A stretch of 62,132 nucleotides of DNA, the filler included. It is 8 parts of 8 records of this genome, joined end to end, with 100 filler letters (N's around TTAATTAATTAA, not from the genome) between each part and the next. Parts side by side here need not be neighbours in the genome. Positions count along the whole stretch, not along the records: positions 47,808 to 51,514 come from SRR7504441_5625; 7 more parts are not named here. One strand, given 5' to 3'. The notes under the pieces are model-generated. The model ran no database searches and was not told the DNA's origin. It saw nothing but the letters and a program-made list of their open reading frames with translations. The translations under genes and the position numbers were made by a program. Positions 1 to 60,600 of the stretch are shown piece after piece (the stretch's first letter is position 1; every line of letters starts with the position of its first letter).

Positions 1-382
1 CCGGATGTCCCGCAGCCGAGACTTGTAGTGGTCCATGTCGCGGCTTGGCATTGCTGCGCGGACTAGGCGGCCAGCGTGGCCCCACGGGTGGGCTGGGCTG
101 ACGCCGGACCGGACTGGGCCTGCGCGCGCATCCTTCTGCAGCAAGGGCACCCTGCGTGAAGAGCAACGGCGCCGCAAAGTCTGTTTTTGTCTTGTCTTCC
201 GTTGGAGTCTTCTGGTGGCCAGAGATGGCTGAAGTACAAGAGGAGATCGGTGCTGTATTAACATAAGTAAATGCAAGCTCGCAAGCTCTGATGCGAACGA
301 TGCCGGCAGTTTAAGGTCTGGTTGAGCGGAGCGCCATAACGTTGCCTCACGAGTATTCGTACGGATACGTACGCAGGCCTGA

Positions 383-1191
383 TCAATCGAGCTTTAACTC
401 GCCCAACCAGGCGATAAGCATCTCTAGCTCGGCCGCCGAGTGCTCGCAGTGCTTTAGCCCTGCCGCCAAGCTCGCCACCCCCCAGCCCGCGGCTACCTGG
501 CTCCACGTGCAGTCTCACCCGGCGGAAGCCCGCAGCCAGTAGCCGTGCCCATCCTTGCAGTGCCAGCCCCACCCCAATCACCTCATCACTCGCCCCGTGG
601 AACGCGAACACCCGAAGATCCGCCCGCTCTGCCCGCACCGAACTCCCGCTGTACAGCTGCCCGAAGGAGGCGTAGACCCCTGCCCGCCGGTCAAGCCGGC
701 ACAGGCCGCCTCCTCCCACCGCCGATCGTCGCCGGGAAGCTCAGTGCAGCGTCTAGCGCCGTGCAGCAGCCTTGGGAGGCGCCACCAATCACTAGCCGGC
801 GGGGATCTCCCCCGAGCCTCGCTATCTCCTGCTGCATCAGTCGGTGCAGGAACGCGCGCGACTGGGTTAGATGGCCGTAATCTATTTCCTCTTCTATCTC
901 CGGCTCCTCGGCCTCCGCCCCGCCATGATCTGTGAAGTAATCGTGCCAGCTGTTGTAGACGTGCTCTCCCGGGCCGTAGCAGCTGTGCGGCCGGGCTGGG
1001 GCGGTGGGGCACACCCAGCGGGCCGACCCAAGCACATCAGGAGCCCGGGCCACCAGCTCGGTGATCCAGTCGCGCCAGGCGTCCCCGTGCCCGGTGAACC
1101 CGTGGAGCAGGATCAGCGTGAGGGTCGGAGCCGCCCCAGCGCTCGGGTCGATCGCCACGACCTGGAACCCCTCGCTTTCACAAGCCGCCAT
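383..1191 (-). CDS. Phospholipase/carboxylesterase (acyl-protein thioesterase-like alpha/beta hydrolase); exons 1191-720, 679-497, 459-383
   Basis: Motifs LLHGFTG, WVCPTAP, nucleophile elbow GASQG, acid in FHGASDEVI, catalytic His in GLKHCEHS. Removing GT-AG introns 719-680 (40 nt) and 496-460 (37 nt) gives a full triad and a TGA stop. Confidence 0.9.
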
Positions 1192-38296: not shown

Positions 38297-41200
38297 CTAC
38301 ATCTTGTCCCGCGAGTAGCACAGAAAGAATTGCTCCTTGCCCGAGCCCGAAATGTCTGCCGAAATGTTCTTGTTCTCCCATACCGTCTTCACGACAGTGT
38401 ACCTACAGCGTGCACTCAGCCCGGCCAGTGCCAGGCCGCACTCAGGCGGTGCAGTCTCGACCACTCCCGAGTTTGGTCGGAGTGACTTCGGAAAGTACGG
38501 GTCCGGAGTCGCGTGGCCGAGCATTGTGCAGCCTAGAAACCAGCTCAGCATTGACAAACTAGGTTGACCTGGGGTTTTGAGGATCTGTAGGTCTGTCAAG
38601 TCGGCACCCCAAATCGGATCCCTATTGAACATAAGATGCAGCGCCAGATTCTTGCGGGATCTGCCGAACACTCAGCGCCAGCAGATTAAGGGATGGCCAC
38701 TTCACTCCTTCGTACAGGTTGGCAACCTCTCTCGAGGGCATCAAGCAGCGCGCACCCTCCCATGGCAAACGTGGGAACAGCCCTCCAATCGAACTTCTCT
38801 GCACGTCTTGCGTTGTGTTCCTTCGCTCTGCACAACACGCTAGCCCAGGCTCGCTGCTAGGGGCATTGCCTGGCCCTGATGCGAGCTCGATTTCTTTTCT
38901 GTTTCTGATCACTACGACACGAGTGATCGGGTCATGCCCCTGCCCCAAGTCAGCAACTAGACAGATGGTGGCTACCTGGTCCCGTCGCACAGCCAGCATC
39001 ATCCGGCGCGAGCCATCGCCGCTGTCAAGCTCAGCAGAAAGCCCGGAGATTGTCTTTGCCAGCACATGCCAACCATCCACACACATTTGGTCCACTGCAT
39101 TTGCCAACTCTCGATCGTTCCTCCCAATTACTACAGCCAAGTCTGTAATTGGGGGCAGCGCTCCCAGACTGTACACTCTTTCTCTGAGGGGGAGCACTTG
39201 TCGCGGCGCCATAGGTACAAGCATGAAGCTGATCATCGTGGAGCACAGCCGGACTTTCCGTCTGGATCCGGCAGCCTCGAAGGTGATCCCGTGCCGGGTG
39301 AGTCCGAACAGCTCCTGCCAAAATGTTCAAGCGCCAGGCGTGGCCACACTCGCCTGTGGGTCTTCGTCATCGTATGCTAGCTGGAGCTGAGAGATGACAA
39401 GAGGCCCACCGGCTGCGGCGCCCAAGTAGCGGCCGCCCTCAAGTGCAATCCCAAGTGGCCGCACCTGAGAGGCATTCAGCACATAAGCAGGCTGTGAGGC
39501 AAGGGACTATGCTGTGTGCATCCTAGTGAGATTTGGCCCAGCTACCGTCGTGCGCAGGTCGCGCTCAAGCAACGCTCTCTCGTTTTCGTCCTTGTATTCC
39601 ACAATTTGACCTATAGGCAGCTCTTCAAGAGAGTACTTAACTGTCAGCACCACCGCCGCGCTCCCTGCACCGACTGAGCCCAGCACCGCTAGCCCGCTGC
39701 TACCTGCTGCCAGCTCGAACGGCTGGTTCAGACTGTCGTTGATCACCACGTATCCAGCTGGCGGATGCACTGCCACTGGGAGCAGCTTGAGGTCAGTCAG
39801 AGGTCTGATCTCCCGGCTGACGCCCTTGCTGGTGTCCCACTGGGGAATGAAGCCACAGCTGTCGATCAAGTCGCGCGGCTCAGCCACACGCTTGCTCGGC
39901 TTGATCACCTATCGACACATTTACGTGGAGTTATGACTCGGGCGGGACCTGCAGCGTATCGGCACGGTCTGCTGCATTGCGCACATCACTGGTGATTCCA
40001 GTCGCCAGGTCTGCAATCCCAGTGACTGGCTTGGCCACAACTCCAACCACCCCCTTGCCAAGTCCCTTGAGCAGTCCCAACGCACCCCCCTCTACTGCGC
40101 CCTTGACCGGCTGATACAATACCCCGCCAACCCCCTCGACGATCCCTCGACCAAACGACACCAACCCAGACCGCGAGTTGGCAGTCTTGTAAGTCTTCTC
40201 GGCCTGGGACTGATTCAACTTGACTTGTTTTCGCTTGTTCTTGTAGTCCTCGTCGAAAGTTGCCTTGGCAAATACATCAGCCGCCTGTGGCCCAGCACGC
40301 TCAGTCACAACGACACCATCCTTGGCGTCAAACCTGGCCAAACACCGACGCACCAACCCCGCCCACACCAGAGACCATTCCCGCGCCAGCAGACTTGCCC
40401 GCAGCGCTCCAAGTGGTCCTATTGCCCTCGGACGGCTCATATAGCAGTGACTTGACTCGAGAGAAGGCGCGGGCAGCCCGCGACGGATTGCCCAAGAATT
40501 CCAGTCCACTCGCCAGTCGGCCAGCTGAGGCCAGTCCGGCTTGGACGTAGAACTCGGTGAGCACGTCCTGCAACTGCTTCGAGTCCCAGATCTGACCGCC
40601 TGAAAGCTGGAAAGAAGGCAGCTGCATCACCTAGCCCACGCACTGTCAGGTTGAGACAGTCGGTCTGCCGGCACCGCGTTGGTCATGTTGGGGATCATGT
40701 ACTCTCCCAGCCGGATCGAGACAACCGCCTTGGCAGGCTGAAGCTCAAAGTTCCGGATCCGCAATTCAGTCCCAGTGCGAGGCGCACTACACCAGTCAGA
40801 GTCACAGCAAACTGCAGGAGGCGGGTCTAACCTGGGCGGGTCGGGCTTTCCTGATTTGGCAGGTATGAGCATCTGCAGTTCCTGCCAGACAATTCTAACT
40901 ACAGTTCAGGGCTTGGCGGTGCCTGGTAGAAGGAGGTCTCCACTTGGACGGCCAGAGGCTGCACCAGCACATCAAACTCGTGCAGATGAAGCTCCATTGC
41001 CCGCTGAGCTGCAGCGCCGCGCCGCCTGCCACAGCCATTCTCGGTCAACGACTGGCCTTTGTCAAGCACAGACCTGGCTTGCCACCCTGCCACTACCTCA
41101 ATCATCGGCCTGGAATGATACTCATAAGGGGACAGCACAATGTCGAAGAAGTGCGGTGATGTGCACTGATTGTCGATCTGAAGATGATCCACAGAGCCCT

Positions 41201-44200
41201 CCAGCTTCTGACGAAGCCCCTGGCTGGAGAGCTCGCCATACACCCCAGCCACAGTCAGCTTGGTCACTTCTCGCATCAGGTTGGATGATCGCAAGTAGAT
41301 ATTGGCGCTGATCCCCGTCAGGATGATCGACATCCTGCATTGTCTCAGGTCCAACAGAGCATCTTTGTACAAATCCCTGGCCAGTGCTCGCGATAATTCC
41401 TCCTCTTCGAGCACCAGCGCCCTGAGATGGCTTTCACGCATGTTTGGGTCCATGAACCGAGTGAAGCGTGTTCGAGTCCATCGCCGCCGCCGAACATACA
41501 TGGTTCCTCCTGAAGAGCCATAGTAGCTCCCACCAAAGTTAAATCCATAGAACCAACCGTCCTTATCTGGAGCCACCCCACTCTCTGGAGCCGTGGCTGG
41601 ACGCCATGGACCTTCCCAGTACCACTGCTTGCCATCAGGCTGGCCTGACTCATCAGCGAATTCGAGGTTGTTGAACTTTTTCTTTGGCTTGTTCTGACCG
41701 TCTGACCAGTTGTCTCGGTCAGTTGGAAACAGGCTGCCAGCAGAGTAATCGTTCCAGGCCATCAACCGACGCTGGTTCTCCCAGATTTCCTCGACTACGC
41801 GCTCTGTGATGATGTTCACGTTCTGATCCTCAAACATAATTGTGGTGATCCCATCGTCTACAATCACCTTGTACAGAATCTTACTCTTGAGCTTGCTGGC
41901 GTTGTCTAGTGTGAAGATGGTGTCCAGCTCAAAGGTAGTCACCTCGCCCAGATCTATCTGATGAGTCCTCGACCGGTCCTGTCCATCTGTGTATGCTACA
42001 AGCAGCCTGTACCCGATCGTCTGCTGTCCCTGCTGTGTGAGCGGCACTGTGTCATAGAAGTACCCCATCTCGCTGCCTGGCGGGAGCTTGTCGGGGAGAG
42101 GCTGTGGCAGCGAGACAGGCACATCCTGCTTGATACTCACCGTGTATGGAGTCTTGTTGATCACGATGATTGGCGGCTGAGACTGCGCCGAGACCTGCAC
42201 CAGCGATGGATCGAGGCACAAGTAAGGCTTGGCACCTCGAGCACGTATGACGCCATCTGCTTCCTGACTGCGACTTGCAGCAGCAACTTCTCGCCTGTCC
42301 TGAGGTTGCACAGCTTGCGGATGTTGGAGCCCAAGTCGTCCGCCAGGACTGGGCTGCTCCAGTCCCACTCGGGCCCGAGCCGCACGTGCACAAGGTCCTC
42401 GTAACTCTTGTCCATATCCTTTTCCACGTTCCACTCAGAAGGCGCCGGCAGAGAGAGATCCCTAGGGCCCCACTGCAGCGGGCTTTCTGACCCAGCTGGC
42501 AGCTCGAGGGAGACGTTGCGCCCACATCGGACTGAGAGCGGCACATCCAGCCTGTTGTGAAGGGTATACTTTGGAGCAAACTTTAGGATCTTGGTCCAAC
42601 GCAGCTTACCCACCCCAGCTTCGCACCTAGCCACCCCCATGACTCCCCTTTCGTAACAAATTAGGGTTTGAACAGTTAATCTAAGGCGAGGGTCACCAGA
42701 ACTGGATCAGCAGCTTATCAGGCCCATTAATCAGCCTGATAGTCTCAACACTGCCCATCCCGAGCGGCTTGGACCCAAATATCAACTTCTGCTCCTCTGA
42801 CTCACCCAATCGCATAATAAAACCCATGTTGGCCAGGTCTCCACCCACTGGCGAGATGCGTGAACCATTGGCAAAGTCCTCCTTGCACAAGATAACAAAC
42901 TCGTCGCCCTCTGACACGCGATTCTGGCCCCACTCCAGCCGGAGTTGGGAGAAGACTTGCTCGCAGTGGCCGTCGTTCCGCATCAAGTGAACTATGTAGG
43001 GGCTGTAGATCACCAGCACCACATGCAGGTCCTTCTTTCGGAAGTCTGCAGTGACGTACACCCGTTCTTCGCGGTTCAGAGCCTGCAGCACCACTGGTTC
43101 TGCCGGTTTGTCGGGCTCCGAGGAATGGCATGCCGCCAGCTGGGCAATCGTGAACTGACTCTTGCCCTCCACACCGGGCAACTGCACCCAGGCGCTCAGC
43201 TCACTCTGGTTCAGACGTTGCGGCAGTGTGATCAGCTCGGACTTTTTGTTTGGCCCAATCACGACTGGCTGGTCCATCCCAGTCACGTGCAGCTCCACTT
43301 CAAATGGAAGTGCATTGGCTATCTTGACCGCTGTCTGTGTGGAGCCGCCAGGTGTAGTTACAGACGGTGACATTGTAGGCGACATCATCTCGCCGTGTAC
43401 AGAGTCTGCCAAAATATGACCAATCAAGCAACCTAGCTTACTATCCAGATGACATACCATTCCAGACCTTGGCTGTATCCATGTTGAGTGCGTCGAGTGC
43501 GCTCTTATTGACGTGCAGCGAGATAAGATGCCCACATACCAGCCTCACGGAGTAGTCCGGCCGGCCTGGCAGACATTTGTCAGATCCTTCACTGGCCTTG
43601 GCAGGGCAACCCACCAAAGTCGGGGCTGATGATTCGCTTGGCCGTCAATCCGAGCGCGCACTTGTCTACCAGAGGCTGCTGTACCATTGAAGGCAGCAGA
43701 ATAGTCAACTCTGCCAGCAATCGAGCAGTGGCTGTCATAAGGTCAGGCCAGCATAGAAACATCTCGACGTGGGCCTTTTCTATTCCAAGCTTAGCGATGG
43801 GTAGCCAGCCGCGGGTCGTGTCAGAGCAGTATTTCATCGTGACCCTGTCGGCCTTGAACGAGGCAGTCAGCTCGATGGAGACGCCCTGGTTTTGGCCATG
43901 ACGGGGGCCCATGATCGCAGAAGACTCGAACAGCGATCGGTCAAGCACCTGGATTGTGCGCTGCTTGTGACCCCAGCTATCCGGGATGCTGCCAGGCTCC
44001 TGTAGATCGAGTCTACCTGAAGCTACCCTGGACAGAGCTTCCTGCTCTTCGGCATCTTCCCCGATGGCCGGCTCGGGCCGCGTGGCCGAGTCGTGCTCGG
44101 CGATGTCCTCCTGGGAAAGAATGCCTTGGACCTCTTGTACAGAGTACGACACCTCTTGCACAGCTTGGGTGACCTCCTGCAGCAATTCCTCCAGCACAGA

Positions 44201-47200
44201 GTCGCGGAACTCGAGGACTAAGTCCCCAACTGTCACCTGCAGGTGCCCGTGGCACTGAATATTCAATGCCCGACTCCCGTAAGCGCCGTCGCCGAAATTA
44301 AGCAGCGTAAGTTTTCCTTCATCAGGCGTGAACTCGATCGCGAGGCTCGACAGCTTGATTGCTGTATACATTGACCCCATTGCGCTCTCTGCCCTCGCCA
44401 GGCTCACTCTCTGGTCTCTCTGAGTCTTGCATCGCTGAATATTACAGTCAGTCAGCTGTAGGGAAGCATCCTTGACTGACGCATTGCGCATTGTGAACTG
44501 AAGCTCAATGCTCAGTGATGCTTCGAGCGAGTGGCTTCCCCTGAGCGGACACACCACGCCCAGGCCATTGATTGAGACCAGGTGGTCCTGCAACCCCTTC
44601 GACACATCGTCTGATTTGGGCGACTGAACAAACGAGTGCTGACAAAAGGCCTTGTCCAAACTCAGTTGGACAGTCCCAGCAGTTGAGCCTACCAAGTTTG
44701 CGCTGATCGACTCGGTAGTGAGAAGCCACTTGGTCTGTGGGTTCTGCTGCTTGCTTGACGCCTTCTGGGTTTGCCATGAGCTGAGCACGGGCTCCAGTGA
44801 ACCCTCCCAGTACGCAAACAGCAGCGATGTGTAAACTGCAGACATGTGCAGCTGGCCTGTCCCCTTGTGGTGCAGCTGATTGATCTGCTCCATTGTCTTG
44901 TGCCTGCACCGGGCACTGTCACAGGCCTAAACCGCTTAGCAATTACCTGAATTCGAAGCACACAGCGAGTAGATCGGCCTGTTCTCCTGTCAGCTCCAGC
45001 ACTGGGGATCGAGTGTCGACAGTGGCTAGCTCCAGCGCGCTTGGCCCGATGCTTAGCTCGAACTTGAACGAGCCCTTCTCGCCAAACCGAGTTGCCATGC
45101 CAAACGAGTCGACTCGCAGCCATCCTGCAGGCTGCAGCGTCGATTGTTGCTCGCTGTTCATTACAACTTCGACTGACTTGACTTGCAAGTCGAACACTGT
45201 CGACATAGCAAATACGTCGCCAGCTTGCGCTTGGGTCAGCTGTGGCTGGAGCTCTGGAATGCCCTTGAATCGATCCGAGGTGATGGGCAACTGCTCATCA
45301 TACTGGCTATTGAACCCCTCGTAGTGGATGAGTACCTGTGATTGGCACAAATGAGTTCCTTAATTCGTTGAGAGCTTCTACCTCGATGGGCTGTGCCGCA
45401 GTGTTGACATCGACGATGCTGCATCCCCTTTCGCTGCCGCTCTTTGAGACAACTTGCGCTGTGGCTCCAACAGCCCAAGGGCTGTTGGACAGGAGTCGCT
45501 CAGAGTCGCCTTCTAGCCACTCGTCATACTCGTCGCCATATCCTTCGAAATGCACTTTCAGCTTGTCAGGGCCATCAGAACCCGGCTCGACCGCCACAAT
45601 CACACAGTCGCGGAGACTACCGGTCTTACTGATCACTTTCACAGGATTACCAACAAGGCTGTCAGCTGTTGTTGGGCCGGTGGCCTCCATAAATCCACGC
45701 AGGGTAGCCCCCAGCTCGCAGAGAGTGGTCGGATTCCATTCGAGCAGCACCTGGGGGCCAAAATCAAATGATGATGTCTAGATCGGGGCGCCTGGTCTAC
45801 AGTCGCATTGAACGTGGAGCTCGGGCTGGGCTCTGTTGGGCCACTCTTGGCACTGTAGTTGGCCTGTATGACTGGGTTGGGTGACGGGGCTGTTGGCAGG
45901 GCGCACCTGCAGGATGGCATCAGAGCTGCCTGCATCACTTGACTTGAGCTGGAGAAGCGAGTGTGACGCTCCACTGTGGAACAGGTCCTGCCCAACCAGG
46001 CTCAGGCCAATTCACTGCAGGAAATTTGCCTGCACATCCAGCACACCCAGCTTGAGGCTCATCTTGCTGGCTAGTCCGCCCAACAGCGTCTGCTCTTGGG
46101 CCCAATCCAGCTCCAGCCGTTGGCATGCAATCTGCACCAGCGCTATGCCAGCATTCGAGTTGACCTTGAGACAAACTCCGCTCCAAATAAAACAGAATTT
46201 GCTCCTAGCAGAGCACTTGTCCTCTACTGAGAGGGCTGGCTCGGCTGGGAGCACCAGATCAGAGCTCGGACTGTCCTCTTGGGTAGCAGCTGGACTGAGG
46301 ATATTGCCAGAGATTACTCCCAGGACAGTGCTAAGCACAGCACCAGACATGTCCATCGACAAGCCTGGAGCCTCCAAACTTATCTCGCTCTCTTTCACAC
46401 CATCCACGGCACTGTTCCCTGAGCGCATTTCCAGCCTGAGCCCCAGTCCACCCAGCAGCTCCTGATCCTGCGCGCCTTGCACAGAGAGTCCAATGTCTTC
46501 CAGCTGCACAGTGAGCAGATTGGCATCCGTGAGGCTATCAGTTGCTGCCTCTGGAGCCATGCTCAGCCGAATCGCCGAGGCCTCAACTGCTAGGCAGTCG
46601 TGGGAGGAGCCTCCTGGAAGCAGGATCGTCGGGCTTTTGACTTCGAACTGGAGCATCTGCTGAGTCGAGCTGGAAGTGCTGCTACTCGACCGCTGTGCGA
46701 GCACATTCACCACACCTGGTCCAGTGACATAATCGATCAGCTGCATTGTGAAGGCATGCAAGTACACCAACCGAACCGATGCCAGGCTGCCTGTAACTTT
46801 GGTGCTCACCGGCGTAGTTTCCACTTGGAGCTCGAGCAGAGATGGTTCTTCCGGATTGCTCAGCCCAGCCAACCTGTGGAACGGACCCTGGCCATGTGCC
46901 ATGTCAAACACTTCGAAGTTACCCACAGTGGTGTTGAGTGTCATGCACTGGTCAGCAGCCTGGGCAAACGCCACAGAGGACGACTCGAGTCTCACAGTCA
47001 CCAGCTGCTGCGCCAGATCCTCTCTATTGAGTGTCAGCTGTAGCTGTTGCAGCTCTACCTTGACATCCATCGCTGATGCTTGATCTGGGGTCGCTGAATC
47101 GTCACCCGAGTCGTCTGCTGGCGGACTGGCGCCGGCAAGGGCTTGGAATGCAGTCATCTCTTGATTGATGAGCTGCATCACCTTGCCGACTGTCTGGTGA

Positions 47201-47524
47201 TTCCATTGTACACTGAGTCCAGACAGGGCCACCGCAATCTCAGTCAGCTCGGGCGCTACATTCATACTCAACTGCAGTCTCTCCGGAGCAGAGCTGCCCT
47301 GCGATTCCAACTCCCCGGAGCTGACAAGCCATGTAAATGCATCCGAGCCTGTCGTCTGCAGTTGATCTCGAATCGACAACCCAGTGGAGCAAAGCCCAAA
47401 CTTGACTCGACCACCACTGGTCTGTAGAGATATCTTGGTGGTGACGAGCTCTGCGAGCACCAGCTGCTCGGACTCGGCCTGCAGTTGAAGCCCAAGCTGC
47501 GGCAGACTGATACCCAGCTCAAAC
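38297..47524 (-). CDS. VPS13: VPS13-family bridge-like lipid transfer protein (C-terminal part, 5'-truncated) with two Tudor/chromo-barrel-like domains, VAB/SHR-BD repeats, a DysF domain, ATG2_C/VPS13_C helices and C-terminal MABP-like domains
   Basis: Hallmarks LQIDNQ, LVQPLAVQVETSF, GLEFLGNP, KATFDEDY, GIVEGVGGVLYQPVKGAVEGGALGLLKGLGKGVVGVVAKPVTGIADL, VIYSPYIV, KFAPKYTLHNRL, IVINKTPYTVSIKQ. About 20 mini-introns join the ORF fragments. Confidence 0.9.
39315..39353 (-). other. GC-AG intron (39 nt) in VPS13
   Basis: CAG|GCGAGT...TTGGCAG|GAG. Contains an in-frame TGA. The donor is the GC variant of GTGAGT. Confidence 0.75.
40882..40922 (-). other. GC-AG intron (41 nt) in VPS13
   Basis: CAG|GCACCG...CTGGCAG|GAA. 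Removes a TAG and restores VETSFYQ-ELQML. Confidence 0.75.
45751..45791 (-). other. GC-AG intron (41 nt) in VPS13
   Basis: CAG|GCGCCC...CCCCCAG|GTG gives ATVDQ-VLLEWNPTTL. A weaker GT donor 9 nt upstream is an in-frame alternative. Confidence 0.65.
45988..46029 (-). other. GC-AG intron (42 nt) in VPS13
   Basis: CAG|GCAAAT...TGGGCAG|GAC. Removes a TGA and gives VLDVQ-DLFH. Confidence 0.65.
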
Positions 47525-47617
47525 CTGCCCGCACACAGTCAGCCCAGAACTCGGGCTCGACAGCCAAAAAGTGGTCAGACAGGCCAGTAATTGGCACGTG
47601 AGGGTCAGAAGATGCAG

Positions 47618-47707
47618 TCGACAGTCGAGAAAACACATTCGACAGTCGGGAAAATGCATTCGACAATCAAGAAACAGCAGTCGACAGTTAGTAATGCACA
47701 GTCGACA
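47618..47707. repeat. 21-bp minisatellite (4+ copies) inside a long VPS13 intron at the contig end
   Basis: TCGACAGTCGAGAAAACACAT / TCGACAGTCGGGAAAATGCAT / TCGACAATCAAGAAACAGCAG / TCGACAGTTAGTAATGCACAG / TCGACA. Confidence 0.85.
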
Positions 47708-47997: not shown

Positions 47998-50900
47998 ATG
48001 CCAGGGGACGAGGCGGGCGGGCCTTCGACCTCTGACTGGGAGGCGTTCCAGACCGACCCGGCCGATGGCGGGCACTGGTGCTGACCCTCGCGCCGGGCCA
48101 CCGACAGTTGGCAGGTACTTTTACAATCAGCGGACCGGTGAGACGTTGTGGGCCGAGGAGCTGCAGGGGGGCGCATCCCGGCAGCGTGGTGCAACCCCGC
48201 CGCCGCCACATGGTGCTACCCGTCCCGCGCAGATCCCGACTGTCGGGTGCAGGGCCGTCGATGCAGGACTCGGTGCAGCGACTGGAGCGTGCTTTCCAGG
48301 CGGTGGCAGGCCAGCAGAGCCAGGAGTACGTGGCAGAGGTCCAGGAGCTACGCAGGCAGCTCGACGAGGCCACTGCGCGCGGGCCGCAGGCTGGGGCCGG
48401 CGCGTCTGGTGTCGCTGGCTTGCAACTGCGGCTGGACCAGCAGGAAAAGCTTTACCAGGAACAGATCGCAGAGCTCAACTCGTCGCTCAAACTCAGCCGT
48501 GAAACGCTGCTGAAGGGCAACGTGTCATTTCAATCGCTCGAGTCGACGCTAAAGTCGCTGGAACACCAGTGTGAAACACTCGAGGAGACACAGGTGACAC
48601 GCTGCGGCATGCACACAGCCTGTCGACAGTCACGTGTAGTCTATCGTACTGACGCTGTTCGGCTGCAGGTCCAAGCTCGGGAGCTGGCACAGATGGCTGC
48701 AGAAGACGAGTCTGGTCGACGCATTGAGCTGGAGTCGCGTGAATCGCTGCGGCTTGTTCTCGACGCTTTCATTGGTAGAAAAGAACCTTTTTCAGCAATG
48801 ACGGATGGCGGCGTCCTGAGCAGTGGCCTTCCTCCGATTGAGCGTGCTACTCACTATGTGTCGGACATCCCGTGCCAGTTTCCCTGGCCAAAGGCATGTG
48901 CAGATAATGCAGGTATTCACAGCATTGCTGCTGGAGCCAACTTTTTTGTTGCATTGAGTGCTTCAGGCCGGCTTTATCAATGGGGCTTCATTGCGAAGGT
49001 TGTAAGCCTTTGCCCGAGACCGCTGTCAATCGCAGAGTCAGTAAAGCACGTAGCCTGTGGGATGTATCATGCCGCGCTGGTGACCATGGAATATGAGGCT
49101 TTCTGCTGGGGTGCTTCATCATGTGGCCAGCTTGGGCTTGGAAACAGTGGTGATGTGCACGTGCCACGAAAGATTGAGGCCCTAGCGGAGAAAACGGTGC
49201 GCCACCCCTGCCAGATTATCCGGTTGATATGCTTAGCAGGTGAAGAGCATTACCTGTGGATGCTATCACACGCTGGCAAGCACACAGCGGCCAGGACAAG
49301 TGTATGCATGGGGTCTAGGAAACCATGGTCAGCTCGGGCAAGGCGATGATCGAACAAATAGGTTCATCCCAACCTTGGTCAAAGGTGTCGATGATGGTGA
49401 GCGCATTGTGGACCTTGCAGCTGGCCTGGGGCATTCGTTGGCTGTAACAGCATCTGGGAGTGTTTACACATGGGGCACGGGACTGCGCGGTGAGCTTGGG
49501 CTCGGAGATCAAGTACGATTCTCAGGTCGGCCACAGAAGCTTGGAGGGCAATTTAACAACTGCCTGGCAACATCAGCAGCGTGCGGACTGCACCACTCTG
49601 TCGTGGTCTCAGTCTTGGGTCTCTGGCAGAGGGAAGATGTTCGTTCACCAGCTCATGCACTGCATGGAACTAGTCTTATCCTGGTCCACGATCAGAGTGG
49701 CGCTCCTCTGCTCTTTTGTTTTGGTGGAGAGGGCAATCAAGGTGTTCATGGATGCTTTCAAGTGATGAAAGTTCAGGAAGATGGATCTCCGCTTCAATGG
49801 ATTGAACCACTTTATCATGGTTCGGCAGCCACTCCACGTGTATACCACAGTGCCTCTCTGGTCCAGGACTCCATATTCATCTGGGGCGGGCTGGATACCA
49901 ACCATGAACCATGTGATGCTGGCATCAGTATGTTTAATGTTGGCACAATGACATGGTCTACGCCAGCTGTCAAAGGAGAGCTCCCGGCAGCTCGAGCAAT
50001 GCACAGTGCGACTGCAATGGGTACCTCGCTTGTAGTATTTGGTGGCGCTTCAATGGCAACAGGACGCCCTGTTGGTGATTTGGCCATTCTTGACACCTCA
50101 AAAGGGGAACCGTTCCAGTGGCAGGTGATCCCCCACCAACCTTACAGTTGGCCCCGGCCGCGCGAAAGGCACAGTGCAGATGCCGTGCAAGACAAGCTAC
50201 TGATATTTGGTGGGTTTGATGGCGAGGTTTCCCTGAAAGACGTGCATGTACTGGATGCGTCTCTGCAGTGGATAGAGCTTGACACTTCTGGAAATGACCT
50301 GATGGAGGCCCGGTCCGATCATTGCACTGCAGTACTTGGCAAGGGAACCAATTTGGCAGTGTTTGGTGGGCATGATGGTACTCATTATCTGAACGATTTT
50401 TGGATCCTTGATGTTGACAAGAGGCAATGGTCTGCTCCCAAAGTGGGTATTCACTCTGTACCAGTGCCTCGCGCCTGTGCATCGTTGTCAGCATGGCCAG
50501 ACGAGAAGGGAGAGACGCATTTCTTTCTTGTGGGAGGATTTGATGGCCATGAGCATCTTGGTGACACGTGGAGATTGTCACTGGACCACCGAGAAGTGCT
50601 TACTTGGGGTGACAACACAAATGGGCAGCTCGGGTGCGCCATTAGTCAACACAAAGGACCTGATGCCGTCGTGTGGGCACCCAAAACAGTTGGAGCTCTG
50701 GGCGATGAAAGCATCCGCTCAATTGCCTGCGGGTTGCATCACACCACGGCTTTGACGGGTAATGGGAAGGTTCTAGCATGGGGCTCTCAAAAGTTTGGGC
50801 AAGTTGGCAAGGATATGAATGTTTTTGGTGCAAGTGCTCCTCAAACAATTCAAGCTGCTCCTGTTGATGTGACACCTGTCGGGCAGGTTGTGCGTCACAT

Positions 50901-51514
50901 CTCCTGCGGAGCTTACAGTACTTTTGCAATAGATGCGTATGAGACCATGTGGTCATGGGGATGGAATGGGCCAGTGGCACATGGCCGTGGAAGTGGTCAA
51001 AATGCCAGGGCAGTTAAAGCTGTAATCTCCACTCTCCAGCGTGTGGCCAGAGGAATGCTAGGGCGCCGAAAGGTCAAGACTGTGAGCGGTATGGGGCGAG
51101 ACGAGAAACGGAACTGGGCTGCTCGACTTATACAGCAAAGGTACCGCCTGAACAAGGTTTACATAGAGCGAAATGTCGATACGCGAGACAAACTGATAGC
51201 CACAGTGGAAGCTGCTGTATTACAGGCACAAAGAGAGGGCAAGCCTGTGCCCCCAGAGATCCGACAAATAGAGGAAAGCAGAGAAAAGAAAAAGAGATGG
51301 CTGGCAGAGAGAGACCGACTAGCCGCAAACGAAGGTAGATCTACCGGGAAGGATCTTGACATGAACGTGTCCTTGCCAACACAGGTGAATGCACATGATC
51401 AGCAGGAAATGGCGAAGTGGCAGGATATCAAGCAGGCGGCAGAGCGAGAGAGAAGTTTAGCAGAGAAGCTGAAAGCCGAGGCTAATGCCCAGACTGCAAA
51501 GGCGCAGGAGATGA
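47998..51514 (+). CDS. WW - coiled coil - RCC1 propeller (with inserted Kelch propeller) - IQ protein, 3'-truncated
   Basis: GT-AG introns 48078-48114, 48213-48252, 48594-48668, 49197-49239. WW domain DWEAFQTD...WYFYNQRTGETLW; 7 RCC1 blades; 6 Kelch repeats; IQ-like LQRVARGMLGRR and LIQQRYR. Confidence 0.88.
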
Positions 51515-51614: not shown

Positions 51615-54600
51615 CGCTAGCCCCGATGCCTCCTGCTTCATCTCGTTTTCGACCTTTGCAAGTGTGTCTTTCTTCTCGGCAGCGCGATTGCTGGCATCCC
51701 CGATCCTCTGTTGGAGCCCCTTTTCCCTGCGACGCTCATCCATCTTGCTCTGCTGTGCCTCAGCTGCTTGTCTATTAGCTAGTCGCAACGCTCCAACTGT
51801 ATGCTCAACCGCTTCCTCTGTGGTCTGTGCTCCTTGCTTTGCTAGCCCAACGGAGTTGGCGGCTGCTGACTGCTGCTTGCGCGATTCTATAAGAGCAGCT
51901 TCCGCCTGCTTGAATGCTTTGTTTGCCAATTGCTGCCTCTGCTGCAGCATACGCTTCTCTTGGCTCCATCCTGCTTCAAAAAACCCCAACTCTTGCTTGG
52001 CAGCCGCTGCAGCCTGCTTCTGCCTATCTAACCGGCCCTCGAGCGTCTCCCTCTCAGCTTCAGCCATTTTGACTGCCTGAGCATCAGCCTCTGCTTTGAC
52101 GCTCTTGGCTGACAACTGGGTCATGATCTGATCAGTCTGCTTCTTTAGCTGATCTAGCCTAGATTGATCAACTCCCCGCTGCTGGTCCAGTTGAGTCCAC
52201 TGTTGCCGGGCGTCCACCCAGCCCTCCCTGTCCTGCTGTTCCTGCTGCTTTGCTTCTTGCAACTCCTGTTTGTCCTCTTCGACACCTTCTTCCAGCATTC
52301 CAAGCTGAACCTTTGCCGCTGCCACCTTGCTATCTATTGACTCCTGCTGTATCGTTCCCTGGGCTGTCACTCGCTTCAATTCGAAACTTGCACCTACCCG
52401 GGAGGAGGACAACTCCTCTGCGGACTCGATGTCGTCAGCCTGCTTCTTACGCGCATTGCTGGCCCTAGCTTGTTCGTTGGTTATCTCCTGGACCAACTGT
52501 TTGTGCGCTTCTTGAGCCCGGCTAAACTTGCTCGAAGTCACGTTGGCCGCCTCTTGAGTCACATGCCGCTGCTTGATTGCATTGTCTACTTCTTTCTTCG
52601 CGAGTGCAACTACTCTTTGGGCTGCCTGCTCTCCTCGGACCTTGGCCTGCTCGTGTATTTTTGCATCATGCAAGATGGACTCGCTCTCGCGAACAAACCT
52701 ACTCTTCTCCCTTACATCAGACTCCTTGCTCAAAACTCTGCTTTGGGCCTCATACGAAGTCTGCGCAGCAGCAGAGGCCACCGTCAAGGCTTTGTCATGA
52801 TCACTAATGGCATCCTTCAGGGCCTTCTGTGCCCGCTCATTCCGCATGCCAGCCTCTTTCTCAGCGCGGACAGCCTCCTTGATCTGGGCCTTGAGCGCCA
52901 GCTCTTTTTCCACCATCATCGCGCTGGCTTTTGCAGTGCTATTGGCTACGGAAGCCTGCACTTGAGAGGCGCTCTGAGCAACTGACACTGCGTGTTTAAT
53001 GTCAGCAGCCCTGCGCTTGGCCTGGTCGAGCTGACTCTCTGCAAACCATTGACTCCGCCGTGCTGCTTGGGCCATCACCTCTGCAGCCAGGCGTCTGCTC
53101 TCTGTCTGCTGCACTGCTTCCCAGCCTGTGACGACCTGTTCCTTCATTGCATTCGCATCGCCTGTCACATTGGCAGCAGCAGCCTTAGCGACTTCGAGCT
53201 TGTCTTTTGCTGCTACCAGATCAGCTGTATGCTGATCCAGCACGGCTTGAGTCTCGTTTTGCCAGCCTGTTGCCTGACGCGCTTCCTCCACTGCATGTTG
53301 TTGTGCTTGCTCAGCAGCAGAATCACGTTGCTTGTATCGTTTCAGCTGCTCACGTTCCTGTACCACGCGACTGCGCGCTTGAGTGTACATCTTGTGTGCA
53401 TCCTCCAAATCCTCCTCAGCCTTTTTGTTCCCGGCGAGGACTGCTACAGTCTTTTCAGCCTGCGTCTTGTCGCGCTTTTTCAGCTTTCTAGCTTCCTTCT
53501 TAGCTTCACGGGTCTGCTTCTTAGAGATTTTGTACTGCTTTCTGGCACCAGCATACGCCTGCTTGGCATTCTTGAGCCCAGTTTCACTCTCACTCAGCTC
53601 CTGCTGGGCAGTTTGCTGCTTTTGCTTGAAAGCTGCCGCCTGTTGGCCAGCCAGTTCAGCTTTCAGCTGCGCGTGATCATCTGCTCGCTGGGCATCCATC
53701 CACTTGGCTCGCGCCCTCTCCGCCTCAGCAGCAGCCTGACGGGCTCGATTCACCTGCAACACGTTCAGAAAATGCTCAGGGCTCGGAGTGCGCACCTGGA
53801 TGTTTGAAGCCTTGCTTGCAGCCGGCAGTTCGATGTTGACTAGCTCCTCCAGTTCGTCTTGCATCGCTTTGAGTGGAGCAAGGTCTACACTGGGTTCTTC
53901 ATCCAGCAATACCAACGCACTGGGCTCCTTGTCATGCCCAGGATCGTCACGCCCCTCGCTCTTTGCGCACCGCTCCTTAGCTTTGCGCACTTGAGCATTA
54001 CTGATATCTTCTGCCTCCTCCTGCCGAGTAGTGGCCTCCTTTTTCACAAGCACTTCCAGTCTATTACTATCGCGCTCAGAGTGCTCTGCAATGCCCTTTT
54101 CCATCTGCTTCAACTGAGCGTCCATGGCCTTGCTGTCTGCTGATGCTGATGAACTGATTATCTTAGCCTGAGCTGCAGTAACTCGCTTCATTGCTCTCGT
54201 GCTACACACATCTGTCAGCATGCACTCTTACTATGGCAAGGCAAGCACCTGGCTTGGACAACTTCAGTAGCCCGCTCAGCACTATGCTTCATCATTTCCA
54301 ATTCTTCAGGCTCGGATCGAATCTGCCAGCCACCCATGAGACCCGCCCTACACCAGCTGCACACCTGTGCTCGAACCCTTGCAACCTTTCTCATTGCTTG
54401 CTGCAGCATCTGCTCGGTCTTTTCGTGAGTTGTCTGGTTGATCTTGGCGGCAGCCATAGCAGCAGTATGCTGCATCTCGTCGGCAATTCGCTTGCTATCT
54501 GCATCTTGCTGATCAAGCACAAGCTTAGCTGCAGTCTGATGGTCGACTGCTTGTTCCCTTAACTGATCAGTCCTCTCCTGCCTCTTGGCTGTCTTCATGC

Positions 54601-57600
54601 CCATAAAGTCTGCAAACTCCGAAGCCTTGTCCGTTATGCTCGCTGCATGCTCCTTGGCTTTCTCAATCTGATTCTTAGCAGCTGTTCTAGTCCGCTTCAG
54701 CTCCTTGTTTTGGTGTTTTTCAGCATCTTCGGTTTCTTCATGCGCATTCCTTTTTGCGTTTGCCACCAGTATTGATGCTGCACTCTCTGCGTCTGTAACC
54801 ACTTTATTTGCCGTCTGTTGGGCCTCATCCTCCCTCTTGATGATGCTGGCTCGCATTGTTTTCATCTCATGCGCATATTGCCTATGCAAAGCACCATTTC
54901 TGTCTCTGTCATCCATATACTGGGCTTCATCTGCCTTGGCTTCCTTCCTTGTTTCTGCATAGCTAGTCGCCTGTTGTGACTTGGCAGCACCGACAGTGGT
55001 CTTGGCCGTTTCCTTGGCCCAAATGCTGAAGTTCGAGGTAATGCCAGCCTTCATTGCTGCACCAGCTGTTTTGAGTCTCCCGAACAAGTGCTGTGCTTTG
55101 CTTCGGAGCTTTAGTTCAGCATCAAATGCAGCATTGCTAGCCTCCAGAGCGTCAGCTGCCCTTTTCTCTGCAGCCTGCTTAGCAGTGATTGCCAGGGCCA
55201 GCGCAGCTGCTGTGTCATCAGCCCGATCCTGCGCTTCTGTTGCAGCTTGGCTAGCTGTCTCCACCTGTGGGTTGAGTGCTGCAAGCCGCTGCTTAGCAAT
55301 TTTGGTCCGAGTTTTTGCATTCCGCCACAGTTCAGCTGCTGTCCTTGCGCCACTTCTTGCCTGCCTGAGCTCACCCCGTAGATCTGCCGCTTTGCTGACA
55401 GCTTGGAGTTTGGAATGTGCGGTCTTGGTTGCTTGTTCAATGTCTGCCTCCACAGCCTTTGCCTGCAGCTGTGCTGTTTCCTGCACAGCTTGCAAGTGCT
55501 CTTTTTGCCTGTCTACTATTGCATTTGACCGGCCCACTCTCTCTTGCAACCCATCCACGCGATGCTTCCACAGAGCAGCATGCTCAGCTGCAGTAGTTTG
55601 GGTCTGACCGGCTGTCTTGCTCTGCAGCTCAGCCAGACTGGCCTGCAGCCTGGCCAGGCGCAGCGCCTGCTGCGCTCCTTGAATCGACTGTTGATATCCA
55701 GCCAACCTAACTTTCTGCCTGTCGCTTTCCCTAGCTAGTTCAATGGCTTGCGCCTCCTGCTGCTTAAGCCTTGCTAGGGCTTGTTTATTGTCGTCCCAGG
55801 CGACATCTACGCGGCTGCTAGTATTCTGGCTCGCTGCAGTTGCTTTGCCAGCCACTGTCTCCCTTGAAGCAACCCTCTGCTTCCACCTACCACACGACAA
55901 CTCAGACCCAGCTTAGGTGTAAGTTAGTCACTTATCCAGCTTTTGTCGCAGTGGACCAATGGCCTGTTGGCTGTGCTTCAACATGCGTTCCTCCATCTCT
56001 GCTGTTGCGTTTGCGCGATCCACATGAGCCTGTACCAACACCTCCTGCGCCCTTGCCCTACTCTGGGTGCTTTGGGCCTCGATCTGACCCTCTCGGGTAT
56101 TTTGTGCAGATACAACCGACCTTTCGACTCGCTTGCGCTCGTCTTCGAGGCCAACTCGTGCCTGTCCCGACACAGTAAAGCACTAGGCAATTCACTACAG
56201 GTGTATAGGCACCTGCTTTCTCTTCTGAGCTGCACTGCCCTCAGCTTGCTCGGCCACCTTGAGCAGGTGCTTACTTTGCTTTTCGGCTGTCACAGCGGCT
56301 AAGATTACTTTCTGCTTCTGTGCTGTGCTTTCTTCGGCGCTATCCAGCTGCTTATTCTGTCTATCCAAGTCAGCAACCGCAGCCTTCTCTGCAGTCTCTG
56401 CATGTACCAGCTGCTGCTCTGCAAACTCCTTGAGATGATTGGCCTGGACTGAACGACTCTGGAAGTCACGCACTCGACGACCCTTGCCTGGAAGCTTGGC
56501 TGTGAGCCGCTGTGACAACAGATCAAGGCGTGTAGCCTGTCGTGCGGAGGCAGACGCCTGCTTGGCGGCGGCTGCTGCCTTTACTGCTACCTTGCGTTCC
56601 CTTTTATGCGCATCTGCAGCGGCAGCATCTGACTGGCGCTTCACAGAGTTTTGTTGGTGCTCAGCTTCTCTTAGTGCTTTTTGTGCTGCTTGTTGCTCTG
56701 TGTACCGCTGGTTTTCTCTCTTAGTAGCTTCGCCAAGCCTAACCTCGCTCAGCTCCTTCTTACGCTCTGCCTTCCATAATTCGACTTGCTTGGTCAATGC
56801 AGCTGACCGGGCTTGTTGCCATTTGTCTTGCGCTGTGCCCAGCTTATCTTCAACAGACTTGAGCGATGCCTTCAACTTTTTCACGACAGCATGGCTGCCC
56901 TGGGCTGCCTTTTGCTTGGCCTCCAGCATTTCAGAATGCTCGAGCTGATGTTGCTTCCGTGCAAGGTCCACAGCATTCACAGCTTTGGTTACTGACCTCG
57001 TTAGCTTCTTTGTTGTGGTGTTGGCTTTATCAGACTCTTGCGCCATGACCTCATTGGCATCTATGACCGCCTTCTTTGTTGCGGCTTCGGCGCTGGCACT
57101 TGTCTTGGCCTTGACAGCAGCTGTCTCAGCAACCGCCTCTGCCTTCTGCACCTGTGCATTGGCTTTGTCTTGGTCGCTCTTGGCCTTGTCTTGGGCCATG
57201 AGTGCAGCTTGCTTTGCTTGCTCTACCTGACGCACTGACTCCTCCGCCCGAGCCAAGCTTGCTTTTGTCTGGTTCAGTTGGGCTTTGAGTTCATGCGCTT
57301 TTGACCTGTGTTGCTTAAGCAGCGCCACTGCCTCTGATACAACATCCACACTCTGATCACGGGCTGCCTTTGCTCGCGCATAATCTGCCTTAACACGGCC
57401 AAACTCCAAGCTCACTGCATCAGCCTCAGCCTTGTGCTTGGCCTGATTCTCGAGGGCCAGCTCCACCTTGCTTTCTGCGCTCTGCTGTGCTGGAATGGCA
57501 TCCCGCTCCAAATGTTCAACTGCCTGCTTACTCGCCATCCTCGCCTTGGTCACAACCGCAGCCGCCTTGGCTTCGCGCCGCTTTGCTTCACCTATGCGCG

Positions 57601-60600
57601 TCTCTGACTGATCGAGTGTTCTGATTGTTTTTGCAAGCGCCCTCTTAGTATGATGAAGATCAGCCGCTTCTTTTTCAGTAGTGACTGTGCGCTCTGCAAC
57701 CACAGCTGAAGCGTGATCATACGCGTCCTTTGAAATCTTGGCCGCAGCGCTCGCTAGCTGCCAGGCGCTGTGTGCCGCTGTGGCCTCAGGATCATTACGG
57801 AGCAGCTTACCCACAACAATCACTTCACACAGGGAGAGCTGCTGGGCTGAACTGCCCACTGTGACAAATCGTCCCACCTTGCCCGAGCAGTCCACGGTCT
57901 GGGTACCTCCTTCATTGATTGAGACCTCCGGCCCACAGATCCGGCCAGTTTCAGGTTTATCATCCATCCCCATGCGTACTTGAATTGCCTCTGCCAGACC
58001 TGGTGCATCACCGCGCGCTATCAACTCTACAGAATTGACTCTGGCGAGATCTTCCAGGTGCACTTGCCACCAGGGTCGCTGTTCGACCTCAGTAGCAAAG
58101 CATGAGCCCAAAGAGAGCACATTTTGTGCACTTCCATCCACGCCTCGGGTGGCCACGGCGTTACCCAGGGTAGAAGACTGCCGAGCAGGTCTCCCAAGTG
58201 CTAGAGTCTGCTGCATACTGCCTTGTCGGATGTAGGCGCCATTCACTCGAACTTCACACAGTTTGAGCTGCACCTCCTGGGAGCTGCCACTGTTTACAGA
58301 CACGTACCGGCCTTGCCGCGCTGGGCTGCAAGTTACTTCTGACAGCTTGCCAGGCATCAACTCCAGCTGTTGATCTGCACAGCGCGGATTACGGAGACCG
58401 CCTTTGGAGCCAAAGGGACCCACGTGCACAGCAATACTGATCGTCTTCAAGGGGTTGTCGCCACCTGGCACTATTTCGACCGCCTGAATTATTGCAGGCT
58501 TGCCCAAGTCTACCATCCACCAGGCTGCAACGACTGGCGGGGACGCAAAACAGGTTGACAGGTCCCCATCATTGGCTAGTGGAGCGTGGCCACTGAGAGC
58601 AGTGCTCTGTCGTGCAAGGCCGATATTCTGTATGGCAGTGCTTGGGGACTGCTGACCATAGACTTGTACCTGAAGCACACACCATTCAATCATGAGTGCT
58701 AAAGGAACATGGCATGGCGCTACCTCGCAGAGTCGGAGTGTAGCTTCAGGGGCCTCGCTGGCGACTGTGACATAACGCCCGTCAATCGCAGGTACGCACA
58801 TGGCCACTGCAGATCCACCGGCATCTATGAGCAGCCCAGGCCCACACAGTTGACCCTTGCCCTCACTACTGCTTCCCACATACACTTTGAGTGCCTCGGT
58901 GGAGCCGGCAGCCTGGCCACTGCTGCTCACCTCCACAGAAGACACTCTCACACTGCTCTGCAAGTCAACACGGAGCCATGGAGCTGGCTGCTGACGACTG
59001 GCAGCGCATGTAGTCCTTTTGCCATCAACTGCAAGGCTGCCTGCGTGGTCACCAGTAGTGCTGGATAGCTGGACAGGTCGACTGCGAGAGACCGATTCCA
59101 CCCTCGAGGATGAGGGTCCTGGGATACCGTTCACCTTGACTTCACAAAATCCAAGCTGCTGAGCACTCCCTCGGCGCACTAGTGTTACAAACCGGCCTTG
59201 CACTGGTGGATCACACACCACAGTGCCAAGTCCTCCCTGTGGTATGTCGATTGCAGTGTTACACAATTGATTTTGTATTCCACCAGCTTCAGGAGAGCTG
59301 CCCACTCGAACCTCTACTGAAGCACCCTGCTCAGAACAGCAATCAGCACGTCCGGTGATCTGCACTTGAATCACAGTGGCATCACTCAGCAGGTCCACAC
59401 GCCACCACGGGTCGTCTTCTTCTTGTGTCACTGTGCATGAGCCCTGGCTGTAGTCTGTGTCCAAACTGCCATCAACAGCCGCAGCAGGATCGCTGCCATG
59501 ATCCATTGAACTCTGGGTGGCTGGCTTGTGCGCACCCAGATTTGCAAGAGTTGGCTTGAGACCAGTCTTCTTGATATAGACAGTTGAGACCATCCCTGGT
59601 GGTGCCTTGCCATATGGACAGTTGTCAGCATTGGCCAGTGAATTAGCCAGTGGATCCCAGTCACTTCCGAGAGTCTCTGTGTTGCACCCCTCTGGAGTGA
59701 GCAGTCCAAGCCTGCATTCCGCCTCATGTTCCGCATAGGAGAATCCTTTGCAGAGCTTGTCGCCTAAGCAGGCTGCTTCACACTTCCTCCGGCTGATCCC
59801 ACGCTGTTTCCAGTGGCCCTTGCCCCAGTGGTACATCAGGCTCCCATCCTGTGGCAGAAAAAGAATCTGCGAGGATGCCTTGACTGTACCAGCCTTGCCA
59901 GGGTAGTACTTGATGTACAATTCAGCGCTGGTGCCATCCTTAACCTCACCATATGGACACTGGTGCGGCACAGCCAGCGGATTATCTGCTGCCCATGCTG
60001 GCCCCAGAGCTGCACCATTGCATTGAGCCTGCGTAATCAAGCCTAGCTGACACTCATCTTGTCCGCTGAGGCTGTACCCATGGCAGTTGGCATCCTTCTC
60101 ACACATCGCTTGGCAAACTGGCTGGGTGGCCGTCACCTGGAATCCCTTTGGACCCCAGTTGTACTTTTTCTGTCCTGGGATTTTCTCAAATAGTGCTCCC
60201 TTTGACGCATCTTGTGGCTTGGGATTTGCCAGGACTGTAAAATCGTCTGGACGGCGCTCTGGAAGCGATGCTTGAAAGCTTTGGAACACCTCAGCTGCCG
60301 ACAGTGTTCTGTCGTACACTCGAAGGCTGAAAATGTCCCCACGCCAACCTGCAACTCCCCGGCCCTTGCCAACAAGCATGCGGCTGGCACCAGGCAGCAA
60401 TGCTGGGCCCGTTGGCTCACCCCATGTCTCACTAAGCTGAGCTGCTCCATTTATGTAGATAGTAGTACCCTTGTTGTAGTGCTTTCGCCAGTTCTCGACT
60501 GCTACACACACGTGATAGACAGCACCTGCGGTGAGCATATCCTTTGCCTGCCGGCCGAAACCTCGGCAGTCCCCAGTTGCCACCTTGCCACTTCTCAGGA

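Follow-up and report, generated by a model that had tools for sequence, protein, structure and literature searches.

Can a whole β-propeller of one repeat family sit inside a single blade of a propeller from another family, with both rings still able to close? The question is raised by a gene on the plus strand of a 3.7-kb contig (positions 47808-51514; G+C content 56%) within the DNA analysed here, a window of 62,132 nucleotides in which eight contigs are joined by 100-base N-linkers. A reading made from the letters alone, hereafter the sequence-only reading, had proposed that this gene encodes an RCC1 domain whose fifth blade is interrupted by a Kelch domain. Our analysis confirms a real and conserved eukaryotic protein with a Kelch domain inside an RCC1 domain, apparently undescribed. 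Judged from its translation, the layout of the protein is a WW domain, a coiled coil, the RCC1 ring with the inserted Kelch ring, an IQ motif and a second coiled coil. We estimate a probability of roughly 0.6 that it acts as a non-enzymatic, two-faced adaptor that is probably bound by calmodulin. We take the source to be an aquatic, single-celled eukaryote; that it is eukaryotic is indicated by short GT-AG introns and by the Pfam domains on the remaining contigs.

The insertion in blade 5

A single frame is open from 49237 to the end of the contig, and the main exon occupies 49240-51514; residues of the exon product are numbered from nucleotide 49243. RCC1 repeats are detected by Pfam in the frame 49237-51513 (PF00415, E 6.6e-40, 135.9 bits; PF25390, E 4.9e-53, 181.2 bits), as are Kelch repeats in the main exon (PF24681, E 5e-63, 212.8 bits), and an upstream frame holds two further RCC1 blades (PF00415, 43.8 bits). 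The N half of the RCC1 domain comprises 4.5 blades and the C half 2.5, which makes seven, with no further RCC1 match in Pfam upstream or downstream of them. A single-blade profile detects the C half from strand c onward.

The site of the insertion follows from the spacing of two conserved residues. From the a-b loop Gly to the strand-c Trp there are 16 residues in both blade 4 (G61-W77) and blade 6 (G497-W513), against 340 in blade 5 (G115-W455). The surplus of 324 residues (124-447, nucleotides 49612-50583) coincides with the model range that fits onto solved Kelch propellers (124..448). Because the surplus equals the Kelch domain, and because its removal restores the spacing of 16, the insert is linkerless, replaces nothing and lies in the b-c turn. 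The limits originally proposed for the insert, 49612-50589, are therefore correct to within two codons, and its placement in a β-hairpin turn that would let both rings fold is borne out by the spacing, the models and the conserved junctions, the hairpin being that between strands b and c of blade 5. The proposed span of the ring fared less evenly: there are indeed seven RCC1 blades, but the start at 48915 should probably be moved to near 48873, since residues 1-5 of the piece containing blades 1 and 2 sit in the predicted interface described below.

It is instructive to consider where the two folds are normally open. In human RCC1 and in an orthologue among our stored proteins (P0030, E 4.4e-122), the chain starts at strand c and finishes at strand b, so the b-c turn is a natural opening point of the RCC1 fold. 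In a Kelch ring the chain enters at the outer strand of one blade and leaves from that blade's third strand, and the confident model of the insert is consistent with this. Since the RCC1 fold opens at the b-c turn and the Kelch fold at neighbouring strands, the two can be joined directly, without a linker. The arrangement could have arisen by direct insertion or from an RCC1-Kelch-RCC1 tandem that was trimmed at its outer ends; the data fit either origin. In a survey of possible b-c insertions across all stored proteins, 241 of 554 long gaps between blade matches resume at strand c; the profile used failed to detect the a-b half blade of the present protein, which served as positive control, and ordinary RCC1 domains also start at strand c. 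Resumption at strand c after a long gap may therefore reflect either inserts at b-c turns or domain starts.

Structure prediction with AlphaFold was conducted on the main exon product; blades 1 and 2 were handled as a separate chain in the ESMFold2 prediction described further on. Model 1, built from an RCC1-rich alignment, has good confidence for the RCC1 halves but not for the insert (mean predicted local distance difference test score, pLDDT, 52.9), and its match to UVR8 covers 307 residues (Z 29.5, 2.6 Å). Model 2, from a Kelch-rich alignment in which no other row spans both RCC1 halves, is confident for residues 125-448 and leaves the RCC1 halves below pLDDT 50 (mean 59.6). Together with Pfam, the superposition of model 2 indicates that the six Kelch repeats form a closed six-bladed propeller. 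Its best structural matches are LZTR1 Kelch (Z 39.2, root-mean-square deviation 2.0 Å, 303 residues aligned), including LZTR1 bound to MRAS, KRAS and RIT1 (Z 39.0-39.2), and KLHDC3 (Z 39.1, 3.7-4.0 Å), with KLHDC2 at Z 36.8. As LZTR1 is tied with KLHDC3 and the identities are 19-24%, this likeness indicates the fold only. At both ends of the insert the predicted strands are unbroken, through junction 1 (E118-132 in model 1, E119-131 in model 2) and through junction 2 (E442-457 in model 2). Model 1 was rejected as a test of the continuity of blade 5: its alignment placed ordinary RCC1 blades in the Kelch columns and linked the two halves to each other, and blades 1 and 2 are not part of the exon.

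Closure of the RCC1 ring was examined with ESMFold2, in which blades 1 and 2 (48873-49196) contact residues 1-43 (blade 3) and 552-571 (blade 7) simultaneously. The complex scores 0.65, against 0.00 for the best of three controls; at least 86% of the contacts are common to the runs, the partner has a pLDDT of at least 75, and the exon product reaches 82 without an alignment. For comparison, 51 of the 78 solved microbial pairs attain the mark for this score, as do 2 of the 108 mismatched ones; for eukaryotic pairs the counts are 39 of 65 and 2 of 126. When a known fold is split, its halves often pass because they resemble solved structures, and the present pass may come from likeness to solved RCC1 domains. 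The result thus indicates that one closed ring of seven blades is compatible with the insert, which is distinct from demonstrating that ring in a cell. The halves might instead complement each other in trans, as a domain-swapped dimer formed through the coiled coils, or be remnants of two rings. The N half does stop at strand b and the C half begin at strand c, which are also the end and start points of complete canonical RCC1 domains, and the c-d loops of blades 1 and 7 are short or deviant. However, the two halves together contain exactly seven blades, the ends of the Kelch domain lie side by side, and blades 1 and 2 are placed between blades 7 and 3 in the predicted complex, so we consider this very improbable. 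Moreover, a trimmed tandem would yield the same nested ring, which makes the two-ring version a scenario of origin more than a different structure.

Conservation of both junctions

We searched for relatives with a word index, which covered proteins of up to 1,325 residues. With the double propeller as query there were 130 matches among 7,999 scored candidates and, among the best 120 of the 130, two proteins (P0001 and P0002) carry both domains. A local test of 271 stored proteins detected both domains in 4, each of which belongs to the cluster of P0001 or of P0002. P0001 and its cluster mates, from ENA (4 members), extend from RCC1 blade 4 to Kelch blade 3 with 56% identity over 279 columns, and the alignment passes junction 1 in frame and without a gap. 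P0002 extends from Kelch blade 4 to the tail with 49% identity over 451 columns (about 55% in the folded part); it passes junction 2 in the same manner and keeps blades 5c-7 and both IQ-like motifs. Because each of the mid-blade junctions is separately conserved in independent ENA proteins, a chimera is very unlikely.

The other searches delimit the family. A search for short proteins gave 43 matches among 5,136 candidates, namely P0001 and three close Kelch-only fragments (78-90% identity) as family members, and a search with the IQ region retrieved P0002 as its single match among 973 candidates of 416-1325 residues. An exhaustive search returned 120,551 matches, the best 150 of which are mostly giant proteins of many repeats; those among the stored P0124-P0271 have up to 7,235 residues and up to 46 RCC1-like stretches. 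DNA was scanned with two exact peptide patterns, which must have missed much, and in these scans no family member appeared in metagenomes of the Joint Genome Institute (3 loci in 170 stretches, all Kelch-only and unrelated), in prokaryote genomes (0 of 19 stretches) or in viral contigs (0 of 42). The Kelch-in-RCC1 family is narrow. At one of the unrelated metagenome loci (L001:102-2700 and 3152-4144), a long TPR-like repeat gene adjoins a stand-alone Kelch gene. The relatives P0001, P0272 and P0275/P0276 (56-90% identity) have apparent intron breaks at three Kelch sites, and there is none in 49612-50583; introns inside the Kelch domain appear to have been gained or lost among close relatives.

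An artefact of assembly or amplification would be suggested by the shortness of the contig and the fragmentation of the assembly, and by the contigs of other sequencing runs. Three public DNA runs, from three studies, yield nine contig pieces that match short parts of the gene at 95-100%; one run is labelled as an aquatic metagenome, one as a marine metagenome and one is unlabelled, and a fourth run gives a poor match of 34 bases. The sequence-only reading had looked to reads across both junctions for support, but none of the 10 contig pieces from other runs spans either one. Nonetheless, independent ENA proteins of about 55% identity share each junction, in frame and gapless, and the ends of the insert coincide with exact structural boundaries; we give an artefact practically no credence.

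Gene structure and flanking domains

The spliced gene is predicted to have five exons in frame (phases 2, 1, 0, 0) and about 1,107 codons, with an open 3' end: the contig end cuts the gene, and the open reading frame continues into the N-linker. Its features, all on the plus strand, are as follows.

47998..48077, +, predicted exon 1, with the likely start Met and the first half of the WW domain (from about 48034); open in its own frame, and assigned by inference
48078..48114, +, predicted 37-nucleotide GT-AG intron dividing the WW domain; its removal brings the WW halves into frame
48115..48212, +, predicted exon 2, with the second WW half and a Pro-rich stretch; this half alone matches WW (PF00397) at E 0.037, below the cut-off
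48213..48252, +, predicted 40-nucleotide GT-AG intron, from frame arithmetic
48253..48872, +, N-terminal coiled-coil region and linker; sub-threshold matches to Fib_alpha and Laminin_I, the coiled coil being predicted from the sequence
48594-48668, +, probable in-frame intron of 75 nucleotides inside the coiled-coil region, from the intron ends in the sequence
48873..49196, +, RCC1 blades 1 and 2 with a short preceding segment, from Pfam (PF25390, PF00415, PF13540), alignment and the predicted interface
49197..49239, +, predicted GT-AG intron of 43 nucleotides between blades 2 and 3, from the intron ends in the sequence
49240..49611, +, RCC1 blades 3 and 4 and strands a-b of blade 5, from Pfam; pLDDT 66-87 in model 1; P0001 extends over blades 4 to 5b
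49612..50583, +, inserted six-bladed Kelch propeller of the KLHDC/LZTR1 type, 324 residues without linkers (Pfam PF24681, E 5e-63; pLDDT 61-96 in model 2)
50584..50991, +, strands c-d of RCC1 blade 5 and blades 6 and 7, from Pfam; gapless alignment with P0002 at the junction, with the blade profile resuming at strand c
51034..51075, +, canonical IQ motif (L598-Q599, R603-G604, R608, V611), read by eye against the IQ consensus
51130..51171, +, second, degenerate IQ-like motif, read from the sequence and kept in P0002; it lacks the Gly and the second basic residue
51172..51514, +, charged tail, probably helical or coiled-coil, open at the contig end; aligns with P0002

Several of these assignments deserve comment. 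An in-frame Met upstream, at 47917, is a possible alternative start. The contig of one other run (X1) carries two small insertions, at 47965 and 47976, upstream of Met 47998; its depth is low and they may be errors. The one-base insertion of the two would disrupt the frame from Met 47917, which favours the start at 47998. If the 37-nucleotide intron is spliced, the WW domain would have its two Trp at a distance of about 20-23 residues, on either side of an aromatic strand, and would be missing the last Pro. The short segment ahead of blade 1 may supply the outer strand of blade 7. The 43-nucleotide intron is covered by a contig of another DNA run, which spans 49054-49305 without gaps and with two differing letters. 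No RNA run was among the sequencing runs matched to the gene, all of whose matched shares are small.

The first IQ motif, about 25 residues past blade 7, agrees by eye with the consensus [FILV]QxxxRGxxxR, and its Q, R-G and R are kept in P0002. The WW domain, coiled coil and IQ motifs that had been proposed from the outset hold in part: the WW domain and one canonical IQ motif can be recognized in the sequence, unsupported by Pfam, and the second IQ motif is degenerate. The protein is possibly regulated by calmodulin, as suggested by one canonical and one degenerate IQ-like motif.

The adaptor reading, its alternatives and known systems

Because the ends of the Kelch domain are neighbours in its closing blade, the whole ring can stand in for the b-c turn of blade 5, and both rings can close. 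There is no linker, and therefore the b and c strands of the RCC1 blade and the closing strands of the Kelch domain probably continue as one two-stranded ribbon. As far as low-confidence models can indicate, this shared ribbon would fix the two rings near one another. Ligands usually bind RCC1 domains at the a-b and c-d loops, and Kelch domains at the d-a and b-c loops. By the general geometry of propellers both joints lie away from these faces, so both faces should stay free; they might then hold two partners at a roughly fixed geometry. The coiled coils would anchor or dimerise the protein, the WW domain would recognize a partner rich in Pro, and the IQ motif beside blade 7 would be the site for calmodulin or a different EF-hand protein. 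A more specific version, in which the linkerless ribbon makes a rigid module that keeps two partners at a set angle, one perhaps a small GTPase and the other its target, with calmodulin and the IQ motif as a calcium switch, is tentative, and we would put its chances well short of even.

It is important to emphasize the points that count against the adaptor reading and the nested architecture on which it builds. The sequence stops short of the C-terminus, where a catalytic or cullin-binding domain could lie. No known relative spans both junctions, none has the WW domain or blades 1-2, and P0001 and P0002 might derive from one organism or from two; the contig pieces of other runs, as stated above, do not bridge the junctions either. 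Neither AlphaFold model is confident in both rings together, and the pLDDT of 35-73 at the joints means that rigidity is weakly based, while closure was modelled with two chains rather than with the spliced protein as one. Finally, the WW half-domain scores 14.5 bits (PF00397, E 0.037), under the cut-off of 26.9, and neither IQ-like motif has a Pfam match to IQ at E 0.01.

The sequence-only reading had suggested a Ca2+/calmodulin-regulated scaffold or guanine-nucleotide exchange factor. The scaffold corresponds to the best reading, whereas a Ran exchange factor is unlikely on the sequence, given the absence of the β-wedge and of a-b loop Asp residues. The longer c-d loop that forms the β-wedge in human RCC1 and in P0030 is found in none of the blades, and Asp occurs in none of the seven a-b loops when the translation is compared with human RCC1, whose D129 and D182 we take to be acidic a-b loop residues with a role in Ran exchange. 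These absences also bear on a broader proposal, that the Kelch ring holds a GDP-bound Ras-family GTPase in the manner of LZTR1 and that the RCC1 ring acts on that GTPase or a second one under calcium control. Such a regulator is consistent with the place of GTPase-bound LZTR1 among the top structural matches of the insert and with the binding of GTPases by RCC1-family domains, as described for RCC1-Ran and RCC2-Rac1 (PMC7522611, PMC5759027). However, KLHDC3 matches the insert equally well and the likeness is one of fold; the β-wedge, which is required for the exchange activity of RCC1 (PMC5759027, PMC7522611), is absent, with a gap of two residues relative to the wedge blade of P0030; the a-b loops differ from those of human RCC1 in lacking Asp; and no register stands out when the protein is compared with P0030 (best local score 69 bits). 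We therefore regard a GTPase regulator as unlikely. A UVR8-type photoreceptor was considered and rejected. UVR8 carries Trp-Arg motifs in its a-b loops, and here no a-b loop has a Trp; the match to UVR8, at 26-28% identity, is a general likeness of RCC1-like domains (RLDs).

Two other functions draw on different relatives. HECT ligases often use WW and RCC1 domains as substrate modules, and the Kelch pocket might read a degron as in KLHDC2/3/10, with the missing C-terminus or a partner linking the protein to a cullin or to a HECT enzyme. The best matches of the insert, in structure (Z 36-39) as well as in sequence, include KLHDC3, KLHDC2 and KLHDC10, and RCC1 domains are present in UBR5 and HERC (PMC10425842). 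Against such a substrate receptor, Pfam finds no BTB, HECT, RING or F-box match in the visible part or in the slightly longer P0002; the absence of a BTB match applies to the visible part, whose C-terminus is cut off and in which elongin boxes were not searched for. We consider this function doubtful. A special case of the adaptor would be a flagellar or cytoskeletal component, i.e. an axonemal or basal-body scaffold whose IQ motif binds calmodulin or centrin. By sequence, the solved chain that matches the insert best is the 'Heavy chain alpha' of a dynein (7kzm_A; E 4.3e-38, summed across several stretches). The other matches of the insert include a flagellar-associated protein and dynein chains of ciliates, besides KLHDC3, KLHDC2 and KLHDC10; RPGR, a ciliary RCC1-domain protein, is among the RCC1 matches, and RCC1 is fused to myosin and kinesin in ciliates (PMC3143110). 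Yet the best single stretch to 7kzm_A scores just 49.9 bits, close to KLHDC3 (44.8), and the word-index searches found the family in no named flagellate, so a flagellar role has a small chance of being correct.

We found no paper that describes a Kelch domain inside an RCC1 domain, in a literature search that covered mostly non-subscription main texts; supplementary domain tables could list such proteins. The sequence-only reading had not recognized the architecture, and this remains apt for the pairing of Kelch with RCC1. The principle of nesting, on the other hand, is known from Trm734 and UBR5. In yeast Trm734 (WDR6 in human), propeller BPB is inserted between strands c7 and d7 of BPA (PMC6847430). 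That WD40 triple propeller thus resembles the present protein in having a whole propeller inside a blade of another, with both closed; there, one WD40 ring is placed in another WD40 ring, ahead of the final strand in the final blade, and linkers join the two. Here, by contrast, two repeat families are combined, the site is the b-c hairpin of an internal blade with 2.5 blades after it, and the join is linkerless. The likeness is one of topology, not of sequence kinship. The seven-bladed RCC1 domain of UBR5 likewise carries whole inserted domains, a UBA between blades 1 and 2 and SBB1-SBB2 in blade 4; these are small non-propeller inserts, the UBA being on long flexible loops, and UBR5 is a HECT ligase (PMC10425842).

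Other comparisons are more remote. Propeller BPB of DDB1 is a nested insert as well, and the CPSF160/SF3B3 family is alike. DDB1 has three propellers, with BPB joined to the BPA-BPC pair by a flexible hinge (PMC1805432). This hinge, the other repeat family and a role as cullin adaptor set it apart. The RCC1 ring shares its repeat pattern and fold with RLDs (UVR8, HERC1/2, RPGR, RCC1, RCC2), the best solved match being UVR8 (E 4e-48), and differs from them in having the 324-residue insert and neither the β-wedge nor the Trp loops of UVR8; among the 48 solved sequence matches listed in the RCC1 comparison, none names both domains. The insert resembles Kelch domains of the KLHDC2/3/10 and LZTR1 type (PF24681) in its six blades (Z 36-39, root-mean-square deviation about 2 Å, about 300 residues). 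Unlike these, it has both ends tied into another propeller, and no BTB or elongin-binding part is seen; identity is 19-24%. In Tetrahymena, RCC1 is fused to myosin and kinesin, and the available text of PMC3143110 does not mention a pairing with Kelch.

The gene offers a clean natural case of linkerless insertion between propeller families, conserved across about 45% sequence divergence. It suggests a simple rule, that an RCC1 domain opened at its b-c turn and a Kelch domain closed at an adjacent strand pair can be spliced directly, which bears on the origins of multi-propeller proteins (insertion, or a tandem followed by trimming) and on the design of rigid fusions. If the module is indeed rigid, this would be the first described eukaryotic Kelch-in-RCC1 protein and a natural template for rigid propeller-propeller fusions. 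For now its importance to biology is limited by the narrowness of the family. In practice, domain callers will show such proteins as two broken RCC1 pieces.

The other contigs of the window contain several further loci. A DNase II open reading frame (PF03265, E 5.6e-71; 25179-26684, minus strand) overlaps an Hsp70-like open frame on the opposite strand (26143-28062, plus; PF00012, E 3.1e-51) by about 540 bases; the overlap is one of open frames. An open frame of 1,978 residues (56198-62131, minus) contains four stretches of F5/8 type C together with Laminin G3 and PAN domains, and long coiled-coil frames lie downstream of it on the same strand (51615-55912). Very long stop-free frames with a charged, coiled-coil-like composition occupy 8651-16801 (plus, 2,717 residues) and 19067-23494 (plus, 1,476 residues), with no Pfam match above cut-off in either. 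Finally, a large gene of many exons (37511-47707, minus) includes a Pex24p-like domain (E 1.1e-09), and the rest of it presumably resembles a VPS13-type lipid transfer protein.

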